From an uncultured Candidatus Saccharibacteria bacterium (lineage in GTDB: Bacteria; Patescibacteriota; Saccharimonadia; Saccharimonadales; JAGQNJ01): DNA of 64,000 nt. The first letter of the stretch is position 1; each line of letters starts with the position of its first letter. The stretch covers positions 4,132-68,131 of the forward strand of contig CAZEED010000005.1 in assembly GCA_964510945.1 (NCBI GenBank), given 5' to 3'. Shown here one piece after another: positions 25,088 through 52,845 of the stretch. Below the pieces are notes generated by a model, which saw only the letters and a program-made list of their open reading frames with translations, was not told where the DNA came from and made no database searches. The translations under genes were made by a program, and so were the position numbers.

Positions 25088-26743
25088 TTAATTTTGCTGA
25101 GTAGCACTAAATTCAATTTTTATCTTTGAGACATTCTTCGGTGTTTTATTAACCCAGAACGGGCTATATTTAATATTTACGTCCACGACACTCGGCAAAT
25201 CTCTAATGATATTCTCGGTATCGCCCTTCTTTTGACCAGCTACTGCTGTCTTTAGCTCATCAACATTGATATCGGGGCCGACCTCGACTTGCCCGTCATA
25301 GCTAATCGTTACCTTGTCACTACTAGGATCGCTCAAAACTTCGTAAGTGGCGGAATCAATTCCATCGTTTTGTATAGCTTGCTTGTCAGTGTCCACTTGA
25401 TCTTTAATATTATCTTCAATAATTTTTCTTAGATCATCTTTCTTTACACCTAACATTGTAAAAGTCGCGCTATAACTAACTTTTACTTCAGACCCTTCTT
25501 GGCCAACCTCAGGACTTATGGTAGTCTTTTCGTTGCTTTTATTGTAAGTAGACTGCAAGGGATAATAGCCTTTATCCTCTAAAGATTTTGCCAGATCAGC
25601 TTTAATAGTATCGTCTTTGGTATCTAGCTTTTCTTTGGCACTATTGGCATCTGATGCAGTTACGACCGTGATAGTCTTGCTCGATCCCCCAGTCATGGCT
25701 GTTCCAGTGCCAGCAACCGACGAGTTAAACCCAGCCACCGAATAGCTTGATCCGCTTGCAAGATTATAATCGTCGCCATTTTCTCCAGCAATCACCTGAA
25801 CTGCGCCGACATGACTACCGCTACTCTTACAATTACTGCCACTGTCAAAATTTCCTGACCCCAGTGCTAAGGCGCTTTGTGTAATAAATGTTTTATTATT
25901 GCTACTTACCCCGGTGCCAGACTTTATTGTGACAGGTGCATCTGTACAGTTACGGATAGTAACCGTGCCTTTGGCTTTTGTTCCGACATCTTTTGTCCCC
26001 GTCGCTGGTGACGACTGACTATCTTGCTTATCTACGTTAGCCAATTCTGCTGGTACTGACTTATCGCCAACGCTAACACTACTAGAATTAGTATCCGCCG
26101 TAAATTCAAAGGTGCTGGCTACATTTTCATTATCCGTATCTATTACAATCGTCGCAGTAGGCATAACGAATACTGCAAAATACCACGCAACGATGAGCAG
26201 GATAACAACGCCGATTATAATAAAGGTTTTTTTGCGAAACTTGTCAAAATTCGGGATTTTTGTGGTGCTCGATTTTGGCTTTTTGGCTTTTTTAACAGCC
26301 TTTTCGGGGACAGAAGACGCCGATGCCTTATCAGACATCACCGCTCCAGCCGTGGCGCCAATCGCCTCCGCACCAGCCAGTTTACCCACATTATTATCCG
26401 GATCTTCGTCAGCCATATCTGTTATTTCTTCATCCTCGTCACTCATCGGTCCATCTGGTGCCTCGGGAATCTCCGGTTTTGATTGCAAGTTTTTCGCAAC
26501 ATACATACCCGTGGCGCCCGCCAGAGGCAGTAGGCCGACTTCTGATGTTATTAATACTGCTTTTTTACCAGCCTCATCAGCTGCTCGCTTCAACAGCTTC
26601 ATATTAATAATGCTCTGCAAGACCGTCGCACGTTTTGGTAATACTAGAGCGACGATATTCGAGTCACTAGCCTGAAGCTTATCAACAATTGCTGTGATTT
26701 CGTCATCTATATCTATATAAATCGTGTCTTTTGTTGCAGCCAT
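25088..26743 (-). CDS. Hypothetical bitopic membrane protein (551 aa) encoded immediately after ftsA
   Basis: Soluble N-domain (IYIDIDDEITAIVDKL..VALVLPKRA), acidic linker, one TM segment, then a large S/T/G-rich extracytoplasmic domain. No domain recognised by eye. Confidence 0.65.
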   Translation of the reverse strand: MAATKDTIYIDIDDEITAIVDKLQASDSNIVALVLPKRATVLQSIINMKLLKRAADEAGKKAVLITSEVGLLPLAGATGMYVAKNLQSKPEIPEAPDGPMSDEDEEITDMADEDPDNNVGKLAGAEAIGATAGAVMSDKASASSVPEKAVKKAKKPKSSTTKIPNFDKFRKKTFIIIGVVILLIVAWYFAVFVMPTATIVIDTDNENVASTFEFTADTNSSSVSVGDKSVPAELANVDKQDSQSSPATGTKDVGTKAKGTVTIRNCTDAPVTIKSGTGVSSNNKTFITQSALALGSGNFDSGSNCKSSGSHVGAVQVIAGENGDDYNLASGSSYSVAGFNSSVAGTGTAMTGGSSKTITVVTASDANSAKEKLDTKDDTIKADLAKSLEDKGYYPLQSTYNKSNEKTTISPEVGQEGSEVKVSYSATFTMLGVKKDDLRKIIEDNIKDQVDTDKQAIQNDGIDSATYEVLSDPSSDKVTISYDGQVEVGPDINVDELKTAVAGQKKGDTENIIRDLPSVVDVNIKYSPFWVNKTPKNVSKIKIEFSATQQN

Positions 26744-41284: not shown

Positions 41285-43333
41285 CTACTCTCCGAAAATC
41301 ACGTTCTGTATTGTCGGGTCTTCGTTAAAATGGTTTGCATCATGTGGGACTCGAAAATGATTGGCAATTGGGATAGAATCGTTAACAACTGACCAGTCTC
41401 GTACATAATTGCCAGCCCAATAAGCTGTACCGTCAGTCGTACGCGTACCTGTCCATTGATTGTTATAAAACCGCAGATCCTGTATCCAGTTTTTTTCATT
41501 GCCAACAATAATCGCTAACTCACCTTTTTCAACGCCTAAATCAATTTTATTATTGGCAATTACATAATTTTCTGTGGCAAAGTCAGATTTTGATGGATCT
41601 GGGGTGCCGGCTGAATTATAGTTACCGCGAAATTCAAAAATCTGCTGATTCCCGCCCCCATCAATCGATAAATCAGAGTTAATAAAGCTAATATCCTGAG
41701 CATCGCCAATACCAATTAATCTAGCCGGCAAAGTTGCGTTATCACCAACAGTTAGTTTTACTTTATCAAAGATAATATCCACTGACCGTTCCCCGACAGC
41801 AATTGCAGGAGAACCAACTAATGGACAATCCCGTGGGTCTGGATAAGTTACTGCAGAACAGTGTACCGGCCTTCTAGTTGAAGGCTCTGGCGGAGGACAT
41901 TTCAGCGGATCAGGCTGAGCGTTGTAAGAACAGCTAAGCGGGCGATAAGTAAAATCAAGGTTACTATAAATGTTTTGAGTAGACGCCATCGCTACTTCGA
42001 TCGCTTCAGTACTGTAATCTCCTTTGATATTAGTAAAGATACTTTTTACCACATTATTGAGTACGATTGGTTGATCAACTCCGATAAAATTAACATCGTG
42101 CACTAAGCAACCATAACAAAATCCTGCGCCAAGCCCCCCTCGACCACCTTCAAAATCTATGCCGTAAATCTCGGCCCACTTAACCGCGTACCATCGTGTT
42201 TCGCGACCCATAATGTAGCTTAGCCACGAATTAACACCAGCTATCTTACATACTTGAGGTGGACCTCCCTGAGAATTACCGATAGTGTTTATGGCTTTAT
42301 CAGCCAATATCAATTTATTGCCTTCTATGCTGGCTATTCGATTAAATTGAACAAAATCAGGTTGAGTGTAACCATTGTCATTATCAAAGGTTTTTGTAGA
42401 TCTAACACAAACAATTTCACCACGGCTTAGTTTCTTGACATCATCGGATGATTTAAGCGAGATAGAGCTAGAGCCCTTTTCCCACGATGATTCTACCGTT
42501 TCAAAATTTTTAAATCTCTCACGTTCTGGTTTGCGAGAATCAAAAACTAACGGGAATGAATCGCCAAGCACCATAGCGAAAGGCGACTCCTCATCTGTCC
42601 CAGTCTGCACAATTACACTCTTACCCGGTATGCCGCGCAGTCGAACAGATGACTTCATAAAGAGCGGTTTAGTAATGTTATAACGGCCTTCAGGAACTTG
42701 TAAAATACCCTTAGTGGAATCTATAGCCCGCTGGAAGGCGACTGTATCGTCTGCTTCACCATCTCCTTTTACGCCAAAATCCTTTACAGAAGCAATTTCG
42801 GCATTTTCTGAGAATGCGCGAACCCTAAAATTCATAGTCCTACTACCATTTGTATATCTCACATAAAAACGTTTTCCTTTTGAATCAGTCGCCCGAATTT
42901 TAATATTATGCGTCTCTTCATTACAGCAAGCTTTAACCTTCATAATTGCTTTATAACCCCTAGTGTTAATCTTTGTAACACTAGGTTTTTGATACACTCC
43001 ATCAAAAGCGATTTTAATGTCCCTAAGCTTTTTTCCCGTTTTTGCGTGTATTACAATGCTTAGATTAGTCCCTTCAGCAGCCTCAGTAACGGACTTTGAA
43101 CGTTTTGTAACCTTAAAACTATAATCCTTTAACGTTACGGATTTTTTTACATCAGCATTGGCGCTGTCTACATTTACTCTGTTTTTCAGCAATCTACTTC
43201 CTATGACAGCAATTATTAGCACCAAAAAAATCAAGACAACCTTCAGCCAATCAGAACGACTGATAATTGAATGTTTTTTCTTTTTATCTAGATGAATATT
43301 ATCTGAATCCTTGTCTTGCACGCCGACTCCCAA
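41285..43333 (-). CDS. Membrane-anchored surface protein with Ig-like N-region and right-handed beta-helix (pectate-lyase-3-like) domain
   Basis: N-terminal TM segment. VKDFGVKGDGEADDTVAFQRAID..VPEGRY is the typical entry motif of pectate_lyase_3 / tailspike-like beta-helices. TTG start in the ORF track, so the true start is uncertain. Confidence 0.7.
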   Translation of the reverse strand: MGVGVQDKDSDNIHLDKKKKHSIISRSDWLKVVLIFLVLIIAVIGSRLLKNRVNVDSANADVKKSVTLKDYSFKVTKRSKSVTEAAEGTNLSIVIHAKTGKKLRDIKIAFDGVYQKPSVTKINTRGYKAIMKVKACCNEETHNIKIRATDSKGKRFYVRYTNGSRTMNFRVRAFSENAEIASVKDFGVKGDGEADDTVAFQRAIDSTKGILQVPEGRYNITKPLFMKSSVRLRGIPGKSVIVQTGTDEESPFAMVLGDSFPLVFDSRKPERERFKNFETVESSWEKGSSSISLKSSDDVKKLSRGEIVCVRSTKTFDNDNGYTQPDFVQFNRIASIEGNKLILADKAINTIGNSQGGPPQVCKIAGVNSWLSYIMGRETRWYAVKWAEIYGIDFEGGRGGLGAGFCYGCLVHDVNFIGVDQPIVLNNVVKSIFTNIKGDYSTEAIEVAMASTQNIYSNLDFTYRPLSCSYNAQPDPLKCPPPEPSTRRPVHCSAVTYPDPRDCPLVGSPAIAVGERSVDIIFDKVKLTVGDNATLPARLIGIGDAQDISFINSDLSIDGGGNQQIFEFRGNYNSAGTPDPSKSDFATENYVIANNKIDLGVEKGELAIIVGNEKNWIQDLRFYNNQWTGTRTTDGTAYWAGNYVRDWSVVNDSIPIANHFRVPHDANHFNEDPTIQNVIFGE

Positions 43334-48726: not shown

Positions 48727-51700
48727 TTATGATTCGATTTTTTGCAGTGGCGCCAAGCTAATATCGAGTTGTTTTGTGCCCCGCGACCCAAAACTAATCG
48801 TGGCAATATCGCCATCCATATGCACCACAGTGCCCTTACCAAATACCGAATGATTAATCCCATCGCCAATCTCTAGATCGGGAACATAACGAGGCTCAGT
48901 TGATACTGCCAAAGCTTCTTTTGGCCGAGGGGCATACTCACTAGCAAACGATCCACCAAAAACTGTTGGTTGATGGGTGTCTGCTAGACGCGAATCAACA
49001 TCAGCCAAGAATCTACTAGGAGGATTATGAAGCGTTCCGCCATAAAGCATGCGACTTGAAGCATACAGCAGATACAGTTCTTGCTTGGCCCGCGTCATGC
49101 CTACATAGCAAAGCCGACGTTCTTCCTCCATCTCGCTTGCATCATATAAAGCACGGGAATGAGGAAAAACTGTTTCTTCCATACCGCTCATAAAAACTAC
49201 TGGAAACTCAAGTCCTTTAGCACCGTGCAAAGTCATCAAGGTTACGCTATCCTTATGGGTATCATTATTATCACTACTCGTCAGCAGTGATACTTCCTCC
49301 AGGAAACCTTCTAGCCCAAGCTCTTCATACTCTGAAGCAACCGATAATAGCTCTTTGACGTTTTCTTGTCTTGCTTCTGACTGCATAGTGCCGTCATCTA
49401 GATAGGTAAGGTAATCTAGTCGCCTAACTAGCGAATCAACAAGACCAGACACATTACTATCGCCCATAACCTCTCGCATTGAACGTACAATATCTGCTAG
49501 TTCTAGCAAACCTTTACGGGCTTTTGGGGTGATATCGTTACATCGATCAGCATTTTGAAGAGCTTCGTCGAGGGTTATAGCATTCTCCGTTCGCCAAGCG
49601 TTAAAGTTAATTAACGACTTGGCGCCAACGCTCCGCGCCGGCACATTCACAATCCTCTCAAAACTCATCACATCCTCTGGCTGATAGATTAATCTTAAAT
49701 ATGCCATAATGTCCTTAATTTCTTTACGATCGTAAAACCTAACACCACCAACTATCCGATACGGAATGCCATAATGAACAAAAACTTCCTCCAGCGACCG
49801 ACTTTGGGCATTCGTCCGATAAAGTACGGCAAAATCTTTGTAAGTTCTTAGCCCACCATCTACTTGATTACGAATAGTCCTAACAATTGCCTCGCCTTCA
49901 TTGCGTTCAGAACCAACCGGAATAATCTGCACCGGCAGTCCATCGCCAAGATCAGTCCATAGTTTTTTAGTAGAACGATGAGCATTTTTTGAGATAACGC
50001 TATGTGCCGCATCCAAGATATGTTTTGTGCTTCGGTAGTTTTGCTCAAGTTTTATAACTTGGCAATTTTTATAATCTTTTTCGAAGTTCAAAATATTCTT
50101 AAAATCCGCCCCACGCCACGAATAAATCGAATTATGAACTACTATCCCTGATGCTATATAGTTATGGACTTTCTCGACATCAATATCATAAACATAACCT
50201 TTATAATCTTCTTTAACTACAGATAAAACCTGCTCTTCCGTAACTGCTTGATTTTCTAGCACTGGGACCAACATACCAGGATGTATCTGCCCAGCTGGTA
50301 GGTAAATAAACTTATTGCCGGTTAAAAATGCATACTTGCTAACCTGCAATTCGAAATTATTAGATTCTTGAATTCTTTCTACGATTTTTTCTATCTTACC
50401 GTAGTCAAGATTGTGAATCTCAACCCTAAAAGTTCCTGACTTACCATTTCTAACTTTGTAGCCTAGCTCTTCAAATAACTTTAAATCCTGCTTATCGGTT
50501 GTGTTTACAGAGATTCTACTAGCTGACCAAGGGCTTTGATTTGATATTCTTTTGTCGCCAAAAAGTACCACATTAACATTAATCCGTTTGCTACCGTTCC
50601 TAGTTGTTGCTTGTGGAAAAAAATGCGGATAATCAAAATTAATTCCCTGCTTTGCCATCAATTCTGAGGCTCTTTGTTCAGTATCTATCTCTGCGTATAA
50701 GGCATCGATGTACTTTTGATCAAACTGCATAAAGCGGTTTTTATAAGCATGAAATACTAACATTGGTATCCCAAACTTATAAGAATATAGGGCTTCTTTG
50801 TACATAGCCTCTTGCCGGTTTTTGCATACCTCTAGAATCCACATTCTGTCTGCGCGTTCTTGATTTGCCCTAATCCTTAGGCCAATATCGTATTTTTTAC
50901 CATCAAATCGCGTACCTTTAGCAACTCCGATTCTATATCCTTTGCCCTGCGCGTACATCAAATATACAAAATAAGAATCTGTTTTATCCCACCTAGAAAA
51001 TAGTATATGGTTGGGTGTACATGTCAGTTCTTTGCCTGAAATAGTTTTTATACGAACAACCTCGCCTTCGTAAGCAAACTTTTTAGTCCTCGTGACTTTA
51101 AAAAACTCAGTTTTTCCATAGCCGCTAGCTGACTTTACTAGTGCTGTATTAGTCATGTTTTCTATTTTTTGAATACCATTAGCTGTTTCAATATGAGTAC
51201 CCTCAACCAGACATTGCCAATCGTCCCCGACAACTGCAATATTATTATTTTCGTTGGTTAATAGCTTGATCAGTTTGTATTGGGCGGCATTGGTATCCTG
51301 ATACTCATCGATCATCACATAGCGAAACTGTTGTTGCCATTTTGTACGGATTTGTTCATTACCCGATAACATTTGCACAGTTCTTGAAATCAAATCATCA
51401 AAGTCCAAGGCCATGGCATCCTTTAGGGTTTTTTGATATAACGGATAGATGCGCGCCGCTTCTTTTTGGGTTGGACTACTAGCAGTAGAGGTTAGCTCAT
51501 CCGGCGAGATTAACTCGTTTTTTGCACTCGAGATAATACTCGATAATTTGCGGGCCGGAAAGCTTTTTTCGTCTATAGATAGTTCTTTAGATATCTTTTT
51601 TACGCAGGCCGTTCTATCAAGTTCGTCAAAGATTACAAAGTTCTTGGGGATGCCAATTTGATCACCGTCTTGACGCAATAAACGCACACAAATACTATGA

Positions 51701-51978
51701 AAAGTTCCCATAAATGGCATAAATGATCTGTCGTCAGATCGATGACCCAATAACTGCGCTACCCGTTCGCGCATCTCGCCGGCAGCTTTATTAGTAAAAG
51801 TAACGGCTAAGATGTTGTAGGGGGTTGCCAAGTTTTTATCGATAATATAGGCGATACGATGGGTCAAAGTTTTTGTTTTGCCACTTCCAGCGCCAGCAAG
51901 AATTAACAGTGGACCCTCGGTTGACTCTACCGCCCGCTGCTGTTCGCTATTTAGATCTTTTAAAAATTCCTCAACCAC
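48727..51978 (-). CDS. pcrA: ATP-dependent DNA helicase PcrA/UvrD, interrupted by an in-frame intein
   Basis: Motif I AGAGSGKT, motif II DEYQDTN. Motif III is split as VVGDDWQ / SIYSWRGAD. Motifs IV-VI and the C-terminal Tudor-like tail are present. The exteins sum to 722 aa. Confidence 0.95.
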   Translation of the reverse strand: MVEEFLKDLNSEQQRAVESTEGPLLILAGAGSGKTKTLTHRIAYIIDKNLATPYNILAVTFTNKAAGEMRERVAQLLGHRSDDRSFMPFMGTFHSICVRLLRQDGDQIGIPKNFVIFDELDRTACVKKISKELSIDEKSFPARKLSSIISSAKNELISPDELTSTASSPTQKEAARIYPLYQKTLKDAMALDFDDLISRTVQMLSGNEQIRTKWQQQFRYVMIDEYQDTNAAQYKLIKLLTNENNNIAVVGDDWQCLVEGTHIETANGIQKIENMTNTALVKSASGYGKTEFFKVTRTKKFAYEGEVVRIKTISGKELTCTPNHILFSRWDKTDSYFVYLMYAQGKGYRIGVAKGTRFDGKKYDIGLRIRANQERADRMWILEVCKNRQEAMYKEALYSYKFGIPMLVFHAYKNRFMQFDQKYIDALYAEIDTEQRASELMAKQGINFDYPHFFPQATTRNGSKRINVNVVLFGDKRISNQSPWSASRISVNTTDKQDLKLFEELGYKVRNGKSGTFRVEIHNLDYGKIEKIVERIQESNNFELQVSKYAFLTGNKFIYLPAGQIHPGMLVPVLENQAVTEEQVLSVVKEDYKGYVYDIDVEKVHNYIASGIVVHNSIYSWRGADFKNILNFEKDYKNCQVIKLEQNYRSTKHILDAAHSVISKNAHRSTKKLWTDLGDGLPVQIIPVGSERNEGEAIVRTIRNQVDGGLRTYKDFAVLYRTNAQSRSLEEVFVHYGIPYRIVGGVRFYDRKEIKDIMAYLRLIYQPEDVMSFERIVNVPARSVGAKSLINFNAWRTENAITLDEALQNADRCNDITPKARKGLLELADIVRSMREVMGDSNVSGLVDSLVRRLDYLTYLDDGTMQSEARQENVKELLSVASEYEELGLEGFLEEVSLLTSSDNNDTHKDSVTLMTLHGAKGLEFPVVFMSGMEETVFPHSRALYDASEMEEERRLCYVGMTRAKQELYLLYASSRMLYGGTLHNPPSRFLADVDSRLADTHQPTVFGGSFASEYAPRPKEALAVSTEPRYVPDLEIGDGINHSVFGKGTVVHMDGDIATISFGSRGTKQLDISLAPLQKIES
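50131..51213 (-). mobile_element. Class 1 intein (361 aa) in helicase motif III
   Basis: - Cys1 (TGT, 51213-51211) follows GDDWQ.
- Block A CLVEGTHIET, block B TPNHILF, blocks F/G YVYDIDVEKVHNYIASGIVVHN.
- Terminal HN (50136-50131) is followed by the Ser+1 extein residue.
- A ~230-aa central insert has no intact LAGLIDADG or HNH motif visible. Confidence 0.9.
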
Positions 51979-52023: not shown

Positions 52024-52845
52024 TTAGTTTGAGATAACGTCAGTTAGAGGCTCGACACCAATATCCACCATGCCGGCATCGACAGCAAAATTTAGCGCTA
52101 CTAATCCCCCAACGATCAACACTACTAATAAGACAATCAATATCCTTATGTTGCGTTTACGACTTAACTGACCAATTGGAACATTATAAGTCTTGGCTTC
52201 AATCAATTCTTCGACATGCTTCGATCTAACTTCAAATTCTTTTTCTTCTTGTTTTTGTTTCTTACTTTCCGCTGCCTGCTCGGCCATTTCATTAACTATA
52301 CCGCCATCATCATATTCTTCTTTTGGTTCTTCTTTGATAGATTCTTTTTCTGCAGGTTGTTCGTCAGTATGCTTGGTTTCGGGTTCAGTTGACTTTATTT
52401 TTTCTTCAACTTTGTCGCTATCGCTTGGTTTTTCTGTATCTTTATTTTCTTTTGTGCTCTCATCTACTTTTTCGTCAGTATCATCAGAAATATTATCAAT
52501 AAACTTGCTGTCTGTGACGCGTTCAGCATCATTAGTCAAATCGTCCGCCTCAGGCTCATCTTTTTCGCCTTCATCTGGATTGGTTTCAGACGGAATGATC
52601 TTTATATGACTTTCGCTCGGTGGCTTGAGATTAGAGGCTAGCTTGTCGGTCATTTCTATTTTCGATATATTAGTCAAGTTGTCTTCGTCTGTACTTTGGC
52701 TTGGACTGATATCTTTTATCATTCCTGAAGGCCTAACTATCTCTGGTTTTTCTATTTTTAATTCGGGCATTTTACTTTTTTCAGTTGTGGTAATATCCAT
52801 GGATTTGTTTGAGCTGACATTTAAATTATTTGCTTTTGGGCTCAT
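52024..52845 (-). CDS. Hypothetical acidic/Lys-rich protein with C-terminal TM anchor
   Basis: 273 aa. Long E/K/D/S-rich low-complexity region, then ILIVLLVVLIVGGLVALNFAV. Abuts the tpiA stop. Confidence 0.6.
   Translation of the reverse strand: MSPKANNLNVSSNKSMDITTTEKSKMPELKIEKPEIVRPSGMIKDISPSQSTDEDNLTNISKIEMTDKLASNLKPPSESHIKIIPSETNPDEGEKDEPEADDLTNDAERVTDSKFIDNISDDTDEKVDESTKENKDTEKPSDSDKVEEKIKSTEPETKHTDEQPAEKESIKEEPKEEYDDGGIVNEMAEQAAESKKQKQEEKEFEVRSKHVEELIEAKTYNVPIGQLSRKRNIRILIVLLVVLIVGGLVALNFAVDAGMVDIGVEPLTDVISN

Follow-up and report, generated by a model that had tools for sequence, protein, structure and literature searches.

A conserved central module, possibly the core of an undescribed endonuclease class, in the inteins at motif III of PcrA/UvrD helicases

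The gene for a PcrA/UvrD helicase in an uncultured Candidatus Saccharibacteria bacterium (assembly GCA_964510945.1, contig CAZEED010000005.1) is interrupted by an in-frame intein, and the locus raises the question of what the large insert between the two splicing halves of this intein does. The gene lies in the 64,000-nucleotide stretch of the contig that was analyzed, which we call the window and whose positions are used throughout. A first-pass annotation had described the intein and its non-canonical center. The intein as such is not new: annotated inteins at this site of UvrD-type helicases exist in E. coli phages and in Bacillus phage SPO1, PMC3868849 mentions the helicase intein of SPO1/CampHawk, and UvrD is among the listed intein hosts (PMC4760082). 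What is new is the central module, which has no entry in the curated libraries that were searched. Our analysis suggests that this module is probably a functional homing endonuclease. More tentatively, and with slightly less than even confidence, we propose that its N-terminal subdomain ('VYLMY...GYRIG...R..E...W.L...EA..E..YGIP') is the catalytic core of an undescribed class of in-frame intein endonucleases, either the first GIY-YIG-derived one in inteins or a new seventh family. It may then be the standard mobility module that motif III inteins of UvrD/PcrA use in bacteria and phages alike, employed again in DNA methyltransferase inteins and elsewhere in helicases.

The helicase precursor is a 1083-aa open reading frame (ORF) with a GTG start at 48727..51978 (stop codon included) on the minus strand, where all features of the gene lie. 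Its N-extein (aa 1-255; 51214..51978) ends in ...VVGDDWQ, the first half of helicase motif III, and its C-extein (48727..50130) opens the second half, SIYSWRGAD, with Ser+1 (50128..50130). Between them lies a class 1 intein (Cys1 ... His360-Asn361; 50131..51213) that begins with CLVEGTHIE and ends with GIVVHN. With a slash marking each splice junction here and below, the junctions read ...NIAVVGDDWQ/CLVEGTHIETANG ... ASGIVVHN/SIYSWRGADFKN..., exactly the insertion inside motif III (VVGDDWQ/C...HN/SIYSWRGAD) that the first-pass annotation had claimed. The codons it had named also read as given, with TGT at 51213-51211 encoding Cys1 and CAT-AAT-TCG at 50136-50128 encoding His, Asn, and Ser+1. 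The length of 361 aa is borne out by the junctions and by the codon count ((51213-50131+1)/3 = 361), and the splicing-domain (Hint) profiles score above their curated cut-offs. Excision would leave GDDWQSIYSWRGA as motif III and a spliced product of 722 aa.

The Hint domain itself is split. Its N-terminal half (intein aa 1-75; 50989..51213) holds block A with Cys1 (51211..51213) and block B with T66-P-N-H69 (51007..51018), and is matched over intein residues 1-72 by TIGR01445 (36.4 bits, cut-off 24.5). The C-terminal half (intein aa 304-361; 50131..50304) holds blocks F and G and the terminal His360-Asn361 (50131..50136), and TIGR01443 matches it over residues 340-361 (30.7 bits, cut-off 15.6). 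The Pfam family Intein_splicing (PF14890) scored 66 bits against a cut-off of 35.8, and the inteins Pho RadA (E = 1.9e-7, aligned to residues 272-361), MJ0781, and PI-PkoII from the Protein Data Bank (PDB) align to the C-terminal Hint half. On the host side, PcrA is identified by TIGR01073 (E = 1.2e-245), PF00580 UvrD-helicase (287 bits), PF13361 UvrD_C (246 bits), and a PcrA/UvrD tudor domain. The UvrD-helicase match reaches the insert (protein 9-256, profile 1-251) and the TIGR01073 match resumes behind it (profile 246-725, protein 615-1079, so that profile position 246 falls on protein residue 615); excision therefore restores a colinear helicase. At 817 bits, TIGR01073 falls short of its equivalog cut-off (911), plausibly owing to the split of the match by the intein.

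Judged by these residues and profiles, the window element is almost certainly an active class 1 intein in motif III of PcrA/UvrD. The splicing residues that had been called intact (Cys1, TxxH, terminal HN, and Ser+1) are present, and they are also conserved in 75 orthologous inteins of other genomes. That the insert is instead an inactive relic or stays in the protein for good, leaving the helicase either dead or working with the insert in place, is very improbable. Cys1, T66, H69, H360, N361, and Ser+1 are all kept across these 75 orthologues of different species, the Hint domain has a ratio of nonsynonymous to synonymous substitution rates (dN/dS, omega) of about 0.09, and, from what is known of SF1 helicases, an ATPase/DNA-binding motif III could hardly work when split by 361 aa. 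The GC content of the intein in the window is 0.35-0.39 as compared with 0.42-0.47 for both exteins, which fits a foreign or separately evolving element.

How common is this intein? A motif-seeded scan of one genome per species gave 88 loci, of which 80 were kept; nearly all come from Saccharibacteria/Saccharimonadales metagenome-assembled genomes (MAGs), with one Howlettbacteria MAG and one Pyrinomonadaceae MAG in addition. Orthologous inteins of 354-364 aa with both junctions found were present at the same site in 75 of the 80 loci, with Cys1 throughout, and Cys1, T66, and H69 are at least 98% conserved over these 75. Wherever the C-terminal junction was found, it reads HN/S (70 of 71 loci) or, at locus L061, HN/C. 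When the central domain alone was used as a profile in an exhaustive HMMER search, 1,539 cluster representatives matched at E ≤ 1e-3, and 680 did so at the stricter E ≤ 1e-10. The motif III site, GDxxQ/C...HN/[SC]-x-[YF]-x-[FWY]-R, accounts for 101 of the 131 occurrences having enough flanking sequence, and the inteins at this site measure 339-383 aa (median 361) and end in HN/S (75) or HN/C (26). The window intein is thus a typical member of a very large family.

Family members carry only the source names 'PcrA' or 'UvrD-helicase domain-containing protein' (one is from a Leptolyngbya), and the family spans Saccharibacteria, cyanobacteria, Acidobacteriota, and cultured phages. The central domain was found in 68 cultured or assembled phage genomes. 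Its carriers there include the helicases of E. coli Justusliebigvirus and Phapecoctavirus phages, some of them annotated 'intein-containing UvrD/Rep family helicase precursor', as well as gp34.33 of Bacillus phage SPO1 (intein annotated), adenine methyltransferases of S. suis prophages, and Vibrio phage RYC.

Two of the records call for separate mention. The Pyrinomonadaceae MAG (L079 4001-4150, on a 294-kb contig; protein P0008) shows an Acidobacteriota uvrD/pcrA with an intein of the same family and the junction GDDAQ/C; its ORF ends soon after the N-subdomain helix (...EAASMKFYTRTNTAFRRWFFI and then a stop), which is a frameshift, a pseudogene, or an assembly error. The helicase precursor of 'Campylobacter phage A150' (MG065639.1, L204, flagged UNVERIFIED) is nearly identical to that of E. 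coli Justusliebigvirus phages such as PaulScherrer (L201). The record is classified in Justusliebigvirus, and its Campylobacter host label looks doubtful.

Close relatives differ in the presence of the intein. Intein-less alleles, which the first-pass annotation had proposed to look for in related genomes, were recovered by an exact-pattern scan as the uninterrupted junction GDDWQSIYSWRG in at least 120 metagenome contigs. An allele of the L169 type reads ...GGTGATGACTGGCAA/TCAATTTATAGCTGGCGC.... Among the contigs listed, the intein-less PcrA proteins are mostly 700-745 aa long and 62-68% identical to the spliced extein of the window, the same range as for intein-containing alleles. In an extein alignment of 60 intein-plus and 69 intein-minus sequences, 82 of the 129 nearest neighbors shared the intein state, where random assignment would give 64.5 ± 7; clustering is therefore weak, and plus and minus alleles are interleaved. 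The closest plus/minus pair, L042 and L169, has exteins that are 94.8% identical and proteins of 1069 and 707 aa, and the difference is accounted for in full by the 362-aa intein, whose junctions are clean in the DNA.

Intein and extein histories are also loosely coupled. Their distances correlate weakly (Spearman 0.35 overall and 0.15 for the C-subdomain defined below), and in L069 and L074, two Saccharimonadales MAGs from one study, the exteins are 87% identical and the inteins only 50%, which suggests that the site was invaded independently or that the intein was replaced there. In our reading the intein is a selfish, mobile element in Saccharibacteria pcrA, and the interleaving of plus and minus alleles fits active homing. 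Two points limit what these data say about a nuclease. Third-codon-position identity near the site did not differ between plus/plus, minus/minus, and plus/minus pairs, giving no sign of co-conversion of the flanks, because divergence is saturated. A patchy distribution can also arise by recombination in naturally competent cells, which needs no nuclease; since such recombination could move or remove the intein, the mobility data alone are no proof of one.

As the first-pass annotation had said, the center is non-canonical, with no match to LAGLIDADG, HNH, or any other Pfam or NCBIfam family at intein residues ~72-313, even at E ≤ 10. An AlphaFold2 model of the central domain built on a 40-sequence alignment (predicted local distance difference test, pLDDT, 92.2; predicted template modeling score, pTM, 0.86) shows two subdomains. 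The N-subdomain (intein aa 80-199; 50617..50976; pLDDT 92.5) is the conserved core of the family and a candidate catalytic, GIY-YIG-like domain; the C-subdomain (intein aa 200-303; 50305..50616) is a candidate DNA-binding saddle. In central-domain numbering, to which 71 is added to obtain the intein residue, the N-subdomain (~9-128) is predicted to consist of a long beta-hairpin (10-17, 21-28), a mini-hairpin, a helix (40-47), a strand (52-59), a second helix (62-76), two more helices, and a 'YPH' motif. The C-subdomain (129-232) is predicted to be arranged as beta-beta-alpha-beta-alpha-beta.

Across 40 diverse members, the invariant or nearly invariant central columns are Y13, L14, M15, G21, R23, G25, G40, R44, E48, D51, W54, A65, E69, G77, P79, F83, T107, L114, P125, H126, R192, and P235. 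In intein numbering, the conserved residues of the N-subdomain are Y84, M86, R94, G96, R115, E119, W125, E140, P150, F154, T178, and P196-H197. Mean pairwise amino acid distances among the Saccharibacteria inteins are 0.354 for the N-subdomain, 0.373 for the extein, 0.481 for the C-subdomain, and 0.489 for the Hint domain. Omega in the closest pair, the single one available to us as synonymous divergence is saturated in all others, is 0.035 for the N-subdomain, 0.076 for the C-subdomain, and 0.087 for the Hint domain. Strong purifying selection acts on both subdomains, and the helicase is less conserved than the N-subdomain that interrupts it. The central domain is therefore not decaying, and its earlier description as possibly 'degenerate' does not hold.

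The N-subdomain also travels alone. The C-subdomain is the more variable of the two and an optional module, missing from inteins that carry the N-subdomain in SPO1 (275 aa), in the S. suis prophage methyltransferase, and in Vibrio phage RYC. P0060, a 2433-aa UvrD-like protein from a metagenome, has three inteins at three sites with one N-subdomain copy each (663-822, 1108-1269, and 1899-2040). The reverse loss is seen in P0005, a Patescibacteria MAG fragment in which the N-subdomain is precisely deleted (...TPNHLLFARWDKT/PHFLPQATTRNG..., the slash marking the deletion), with the C-subdomain and the reading frame retained, a state that resembles a decay intermediate and would be expected late in a homing cycle. 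The separate occurrence of the N-subdomain is the kind of modularity typical of GIY-YIG and HNH endonucleases and identifies this subdomain as the portable core.

Several of these hosts deserve a note of their own. Only one of the three intein sites of P0060 is motif III. Other multi-intein proteins of this kind are P0071, P0104, P0107, P0136, and P0147; P0107 also has a LAGLIDADG intein, and P0103 has a DUF559/Vsr-like one. In Streptococcus phage phi-SsuSSJ28_rum (L203 373-2484), a 704-aa 'adenine-specific methyltransferase' contains an unannotated intein, C...HN/C, with the N-subdomain only. The same N-subdomain-only methyltransferase intein is present in at least seven S. suis prophages, one record of which labels the gene 'putative ParB-like nuclease'.

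Which known fold, if any, does the module resemble? The first candidate is LAGLIDADG, the usual endonuclease partner of inteins: the center could be a LAGLIDADG enzyme so far diverged or decayed that its signature motifs are gone. In a Foldseek search of the whole central model against the PDB, LAGLIDADG enzymes did lead the list (I-SmaMI, I-OnuI, I-TnaI, I-Vdi141I, and I-DmoI; E = 0.02-0.1, probability 0.8-0.94, 70-86 columns, TM-score about 0.2), followed by the T4 MotA C-terminal domain and eIF1, and LAGLIDADG proteins also appeared in the fold search against viral models. Both subdomains have a similar beta-beta-alpha-beta-alpha order, reminiscent of a pseudo-dimer, and the string YLMYAQGKG is superficially like a LAGLIDADG motif. 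We nevertheless consider this origin improbable. The LAGLIDADG, MotA, and eIF1 matches vanish when the N-subdomain alone is the query and therefore belong to the C-subdomain, which is dispensable in the SPO1-type relatives; their TM-scores are low; and Pfam LAGLIDADG families matched neither the window domain nor any of 40 relatives, even at E ≤ 10. The segment YLMYAQGKGYRIG, which the first-pass annotation had taken for a LAGLIDADG-like motif with a lost Asp, is predicted with confidence to be a beta-hairpin (pLDDT 96-97) and not an interface helix, and the supposed Asp position varies within the family. The same segment is the most conserved signature of the family, 'VYLMY...G[YF]R[IV]G', and the strong purifying selection on the module is at odds with decay. 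We read the C-subdomain as a putative beta-sheet DNA-binding saddle.

The resemblance of the N-subdomain runs in another direction. A GIY-YIG-like pattern can be seen by eye: strand 1 bears a Tyr, strand 2 the string aromatic-R-I-G, helix 1 an Arg, and helix 2, behind a 'W-I-L' strand, 'EA...E'. R115 and E140 are invariant or nearly so (at least 90%) in the 40-sequence alignment. No Pfam family other than GIY-YIG (PF01541) matched more than 2 of the 40 members; GIY-YIG matched four (best E = 0.0095) and was also the top match of both family consensus sequences (E = 0.025, query 9-73 against model positions 1-69 of 78). When a 234-sequence profile of the N-subdomain was compared by hhalign with real UvrC and YhbQ sequences, the alignment reached P = 0.012 over 67 colinear columns and paired E140 (central E69) with the catalytic Glu of UvrC, but the UvrC Arg with a different Arg. 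The comparison profile was limited to UvrC and YhbQ because an I-TevI-seeded search gave just nine near-identical proteins. Against viral models, Foldseek returned several full-length GIY-YIG homing endonucleases after the true relatives (E = 1e-3 to 1e-1), among them Pithovirus W5S5I6 (E = 1.1e-3, probability 0.91), Harvfovirus, Moumouvirus, and SegE-like proteins.

A good deal weighs against this assignment. For the window domain and 40 relatives, no significant family of any kind, and hence no nuclease family, was found in Pfam, NCBIfam, PHROGs, or PADLOC, and the GIY-YIG match of 15.3 bits stays under its gathering cut-off of 22.6. Ten divergent and five phage N-subdomains matched nothing in Pfam, GIY-YIG included. 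The hhalign probability was just 3.6%, one of 30 column-shuffled controls equaled the score, and a smaller, 40-sequence profile gave P = 0.13. With the N-subdomain alone as the query against the PDB, the best Foldseek match had E = 0.29, and I-TevI, UvrC, and Slx1 were absent from the top 50. The motif register, V-Y84-L-M...G-Y93-R94-I-G96, sets its two Tyr residues 9 positions apart and lengthens the 'YIG' part by one residue, giving Y-R-I-G where the canonical register is Y-I-G; a by-eye pairing of the modeled hairpin would set Y84 opposite G96 and not opposite a second Tyr. Two acidic residues show exceptions: E119 is replaced by Gln in SPO1-type inteins, and D122 is not present in all members.

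Other folds fared no better. A sequence-profile search of the PDB with the central domain gave a chance match only. HNH was set aside, as there was no match in Pfam, PHROGs, or PADLOC and no invariant His in the region of the mini-hairpin and helix; by eye, we saw neither a conserved D...ExK on adjacent strands, as in PD-(D/E)xK enzymes, nor an HUH motif. AP2 domains accompany some HNH intein endonucleases, and an AP2/ERF comparison by hhalign (P = 0.06) was rejected. Literature searches for the central domain or for a UvrD intein brought up nothing specific. On balance, we hold derivation of the N-subdomain from GIY-YIG to be a tentative reading, a little short of an even chance, and a nuclease of another fold to be rather unlikely; the remaining probability goes to a domain that is not a nuclease or to a LAGLIDADG remnant.

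Could the module serve the host instead? Inteins can act as conditional switches, and a review reportedly covers the recruitment of mobile elements for cellular functions in prokaryotes. The center might then be a DNA-binding or regulatory domain, kept or co-opted for host benefit, that makes splicing conditional on DNA or DNA damage, for example, while ordinary recombination between alleles accounts for the patchy distribution. We regard this as an unlikely alternative. A domain more conserved than its host gene (0.354 versus 0.373, with an omega of about 0.035) is atypical for a selfish endonuclease and counts against our own interpretation; the absence of a significant nuclease family match in the libraries searched and the likeness of the C-subdomain to DNA-binding saddles (T4 MotA C-terminal domain, eIF1-like folds) suit a regulatory role as well. 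The same module is found, however, in inteins of unrelated host proteins (a phage adenine methyltransferase, for one) and at other positions in UvrD-like proteins, which argues for a function centered on the intein and not on PcrA. Intein and extein trees are decoupled, with close genomes differing in presence, and invariant Tyr, Arg, and Glu residues suit a catalytic site better than a binding surface. A homing endonuclease is in our view the more probable reading.

Under this interpretation, the element would act at two levels. In the protein, the conserved residues imply an N-S acyl shift at Cys1, transesterification to Ser+1, cyclization of Asn361, and a final O-N shift (amide rearrangement), so that GDDWQ would be rejoined to SIYSWRGAD, yielding the 722-aa active PcrA and the free intein. 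At the DNA level, the C-subdomain, perhaps with the Hint domain, would bind the empty pcrA site, and the N-subdomain would cleave it, with Y84, R94, R115, E119, and E140 as candidate active-site residues and, if the subdomain is GIY-YIG-like, with one metal ion. Recombinational repair from the intein-plus allele would then copy the intein into the cut allele. This division of labor between a catalytic, highly conserved N-subdomain and a DNA-binding, more variable C-subdomain is a proposal.

The value of these results lies in the domain family and not in this particular locus. According to the literature, the homing endonucleases of inteins are LAGLIDADG and HNH enzymes, rarely Vsr-like or EndoVII-like ones, and GIY-YIG is stated to be absent (PMC2677866). 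To this the present domain adds more than 1,500 cluster representatives and a confidently predicted fold that has no PDB match; the domain is not listed in Pfam, NCBIfam, or PHROGs. Should it prove to be a nuclease, it would give a class of site-specific enzymes that are compact (only ~120 aa in inteins of the SPO1 type) and would account for the spread of the commonest helicase intein. If it is not, the fact that it is better conserved than the essential helicase hosting it would speak for co-option, for instance to make splicing depend on DNA. Since SPO1 and the E. coli phages of the BASEL collection can be cultivated and carry the domain, its activity is open to direct test. For annotation, 'PcrA' proteins of ~1,080 aa should be labeled intein-containing precursors.

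The surroundings of the gene are those of an ordinary Saccharibacteria chromosome, with uvrA, ppsA, alaS, typA, tpiA, and pgk, and nine other window ORFs that were scanned had no intein match. Directly upstream of pcrA, a 273-aa ORF (52024-52845, minus strand) encodes an extremely acidic, low-complexity protein rich in Glu, Lys, Asp, and Ser, with one C-terminal hydrophobic segment and no NCBIfam match. Two further minus-strand ORFs, of 682 aa (41285-43333) and 551 aa (25088-26743), had no NCBIfam match at E ≤ 1e-5.

How, finally, does the window intein compare with known systems? With the LAGLIDADG (DOD) inteins PI-SceI, PI-PfuI, and PI-PkoII it shares a Hint domain split by an insert of ~230 aa, a total length in the range of ~360-450 aa, a Hint C-terminus that aligns to that of PI-PkoII, and a weak fold resemblance of its C-subdomain to a LAGLIDADG half-domain. 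It differs from them in having neither LAGLIDADG motifs nor a Pfam match, and in the different, unmatched fold of its N-subdomain.

The likeness to GIY-YIG homing endonucleases (I-TevI, Seg proteins, and those of giant-virus group I introns) lies in a bipartite architecture, in which a helical linker joins a small conserved N-terminal domain to a variable C-terminal part for DNA binding, in the element order beta1-beta2-alpha-beta3-alpha, and in the placement of a Tyr on beta1, aromatic-x-G on beta2, an invariant Arg in the first helix, and an invariant Glu in the second; sequence and fold matches are recurrent but below threshold. The window module differs in a 10-residue mini-hairpin before the first helix, in Y-R-I-G instead of Y-I-G, and in being embedded in frame in an intein. 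GIY-YIG and Vsr-like endonucleases were stated in 2009 not to be known in inteins (PMC2677866), and a 2025 survey of actinobacteriophage inteins lists only LAGLIDADG, HNH, Vsr-like, and EndoVII-like endonucleases (bioRxiv 10.1101/2025.01.02.630785).

The phage helicase inteins of SPO1 gp34.33/CampHawk and of E. coli phages (PaulScherrer bas60_0082) are annotated as 'intein' only, with no endonuclease type (PMC3868849). They differ from the window intein in a central domain that is only 25-27% identical and, in the SPO1 type (275 aa), in lacking the C-subdomain. They share with it the same host family and site (GDxxQ/C...HN/[SC]-[IM]-Y-x-F-R) and a class 1 Hint domain. Viral models superpose on the window center, A0A140G655 with E = 5.9e-14 and a TM-score of 0.75 and A0A8S5V111 (a DNA 3'-5' helicase of Siphoviridae sp.) with E = 1.9e-10 and a TM-score of 0.45. 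Common to the phage inteins and the window intein is the N-subdomain signature VYLM...[FW]R[VI]G...R..E...W[VI]L...EA...E...YGIP.

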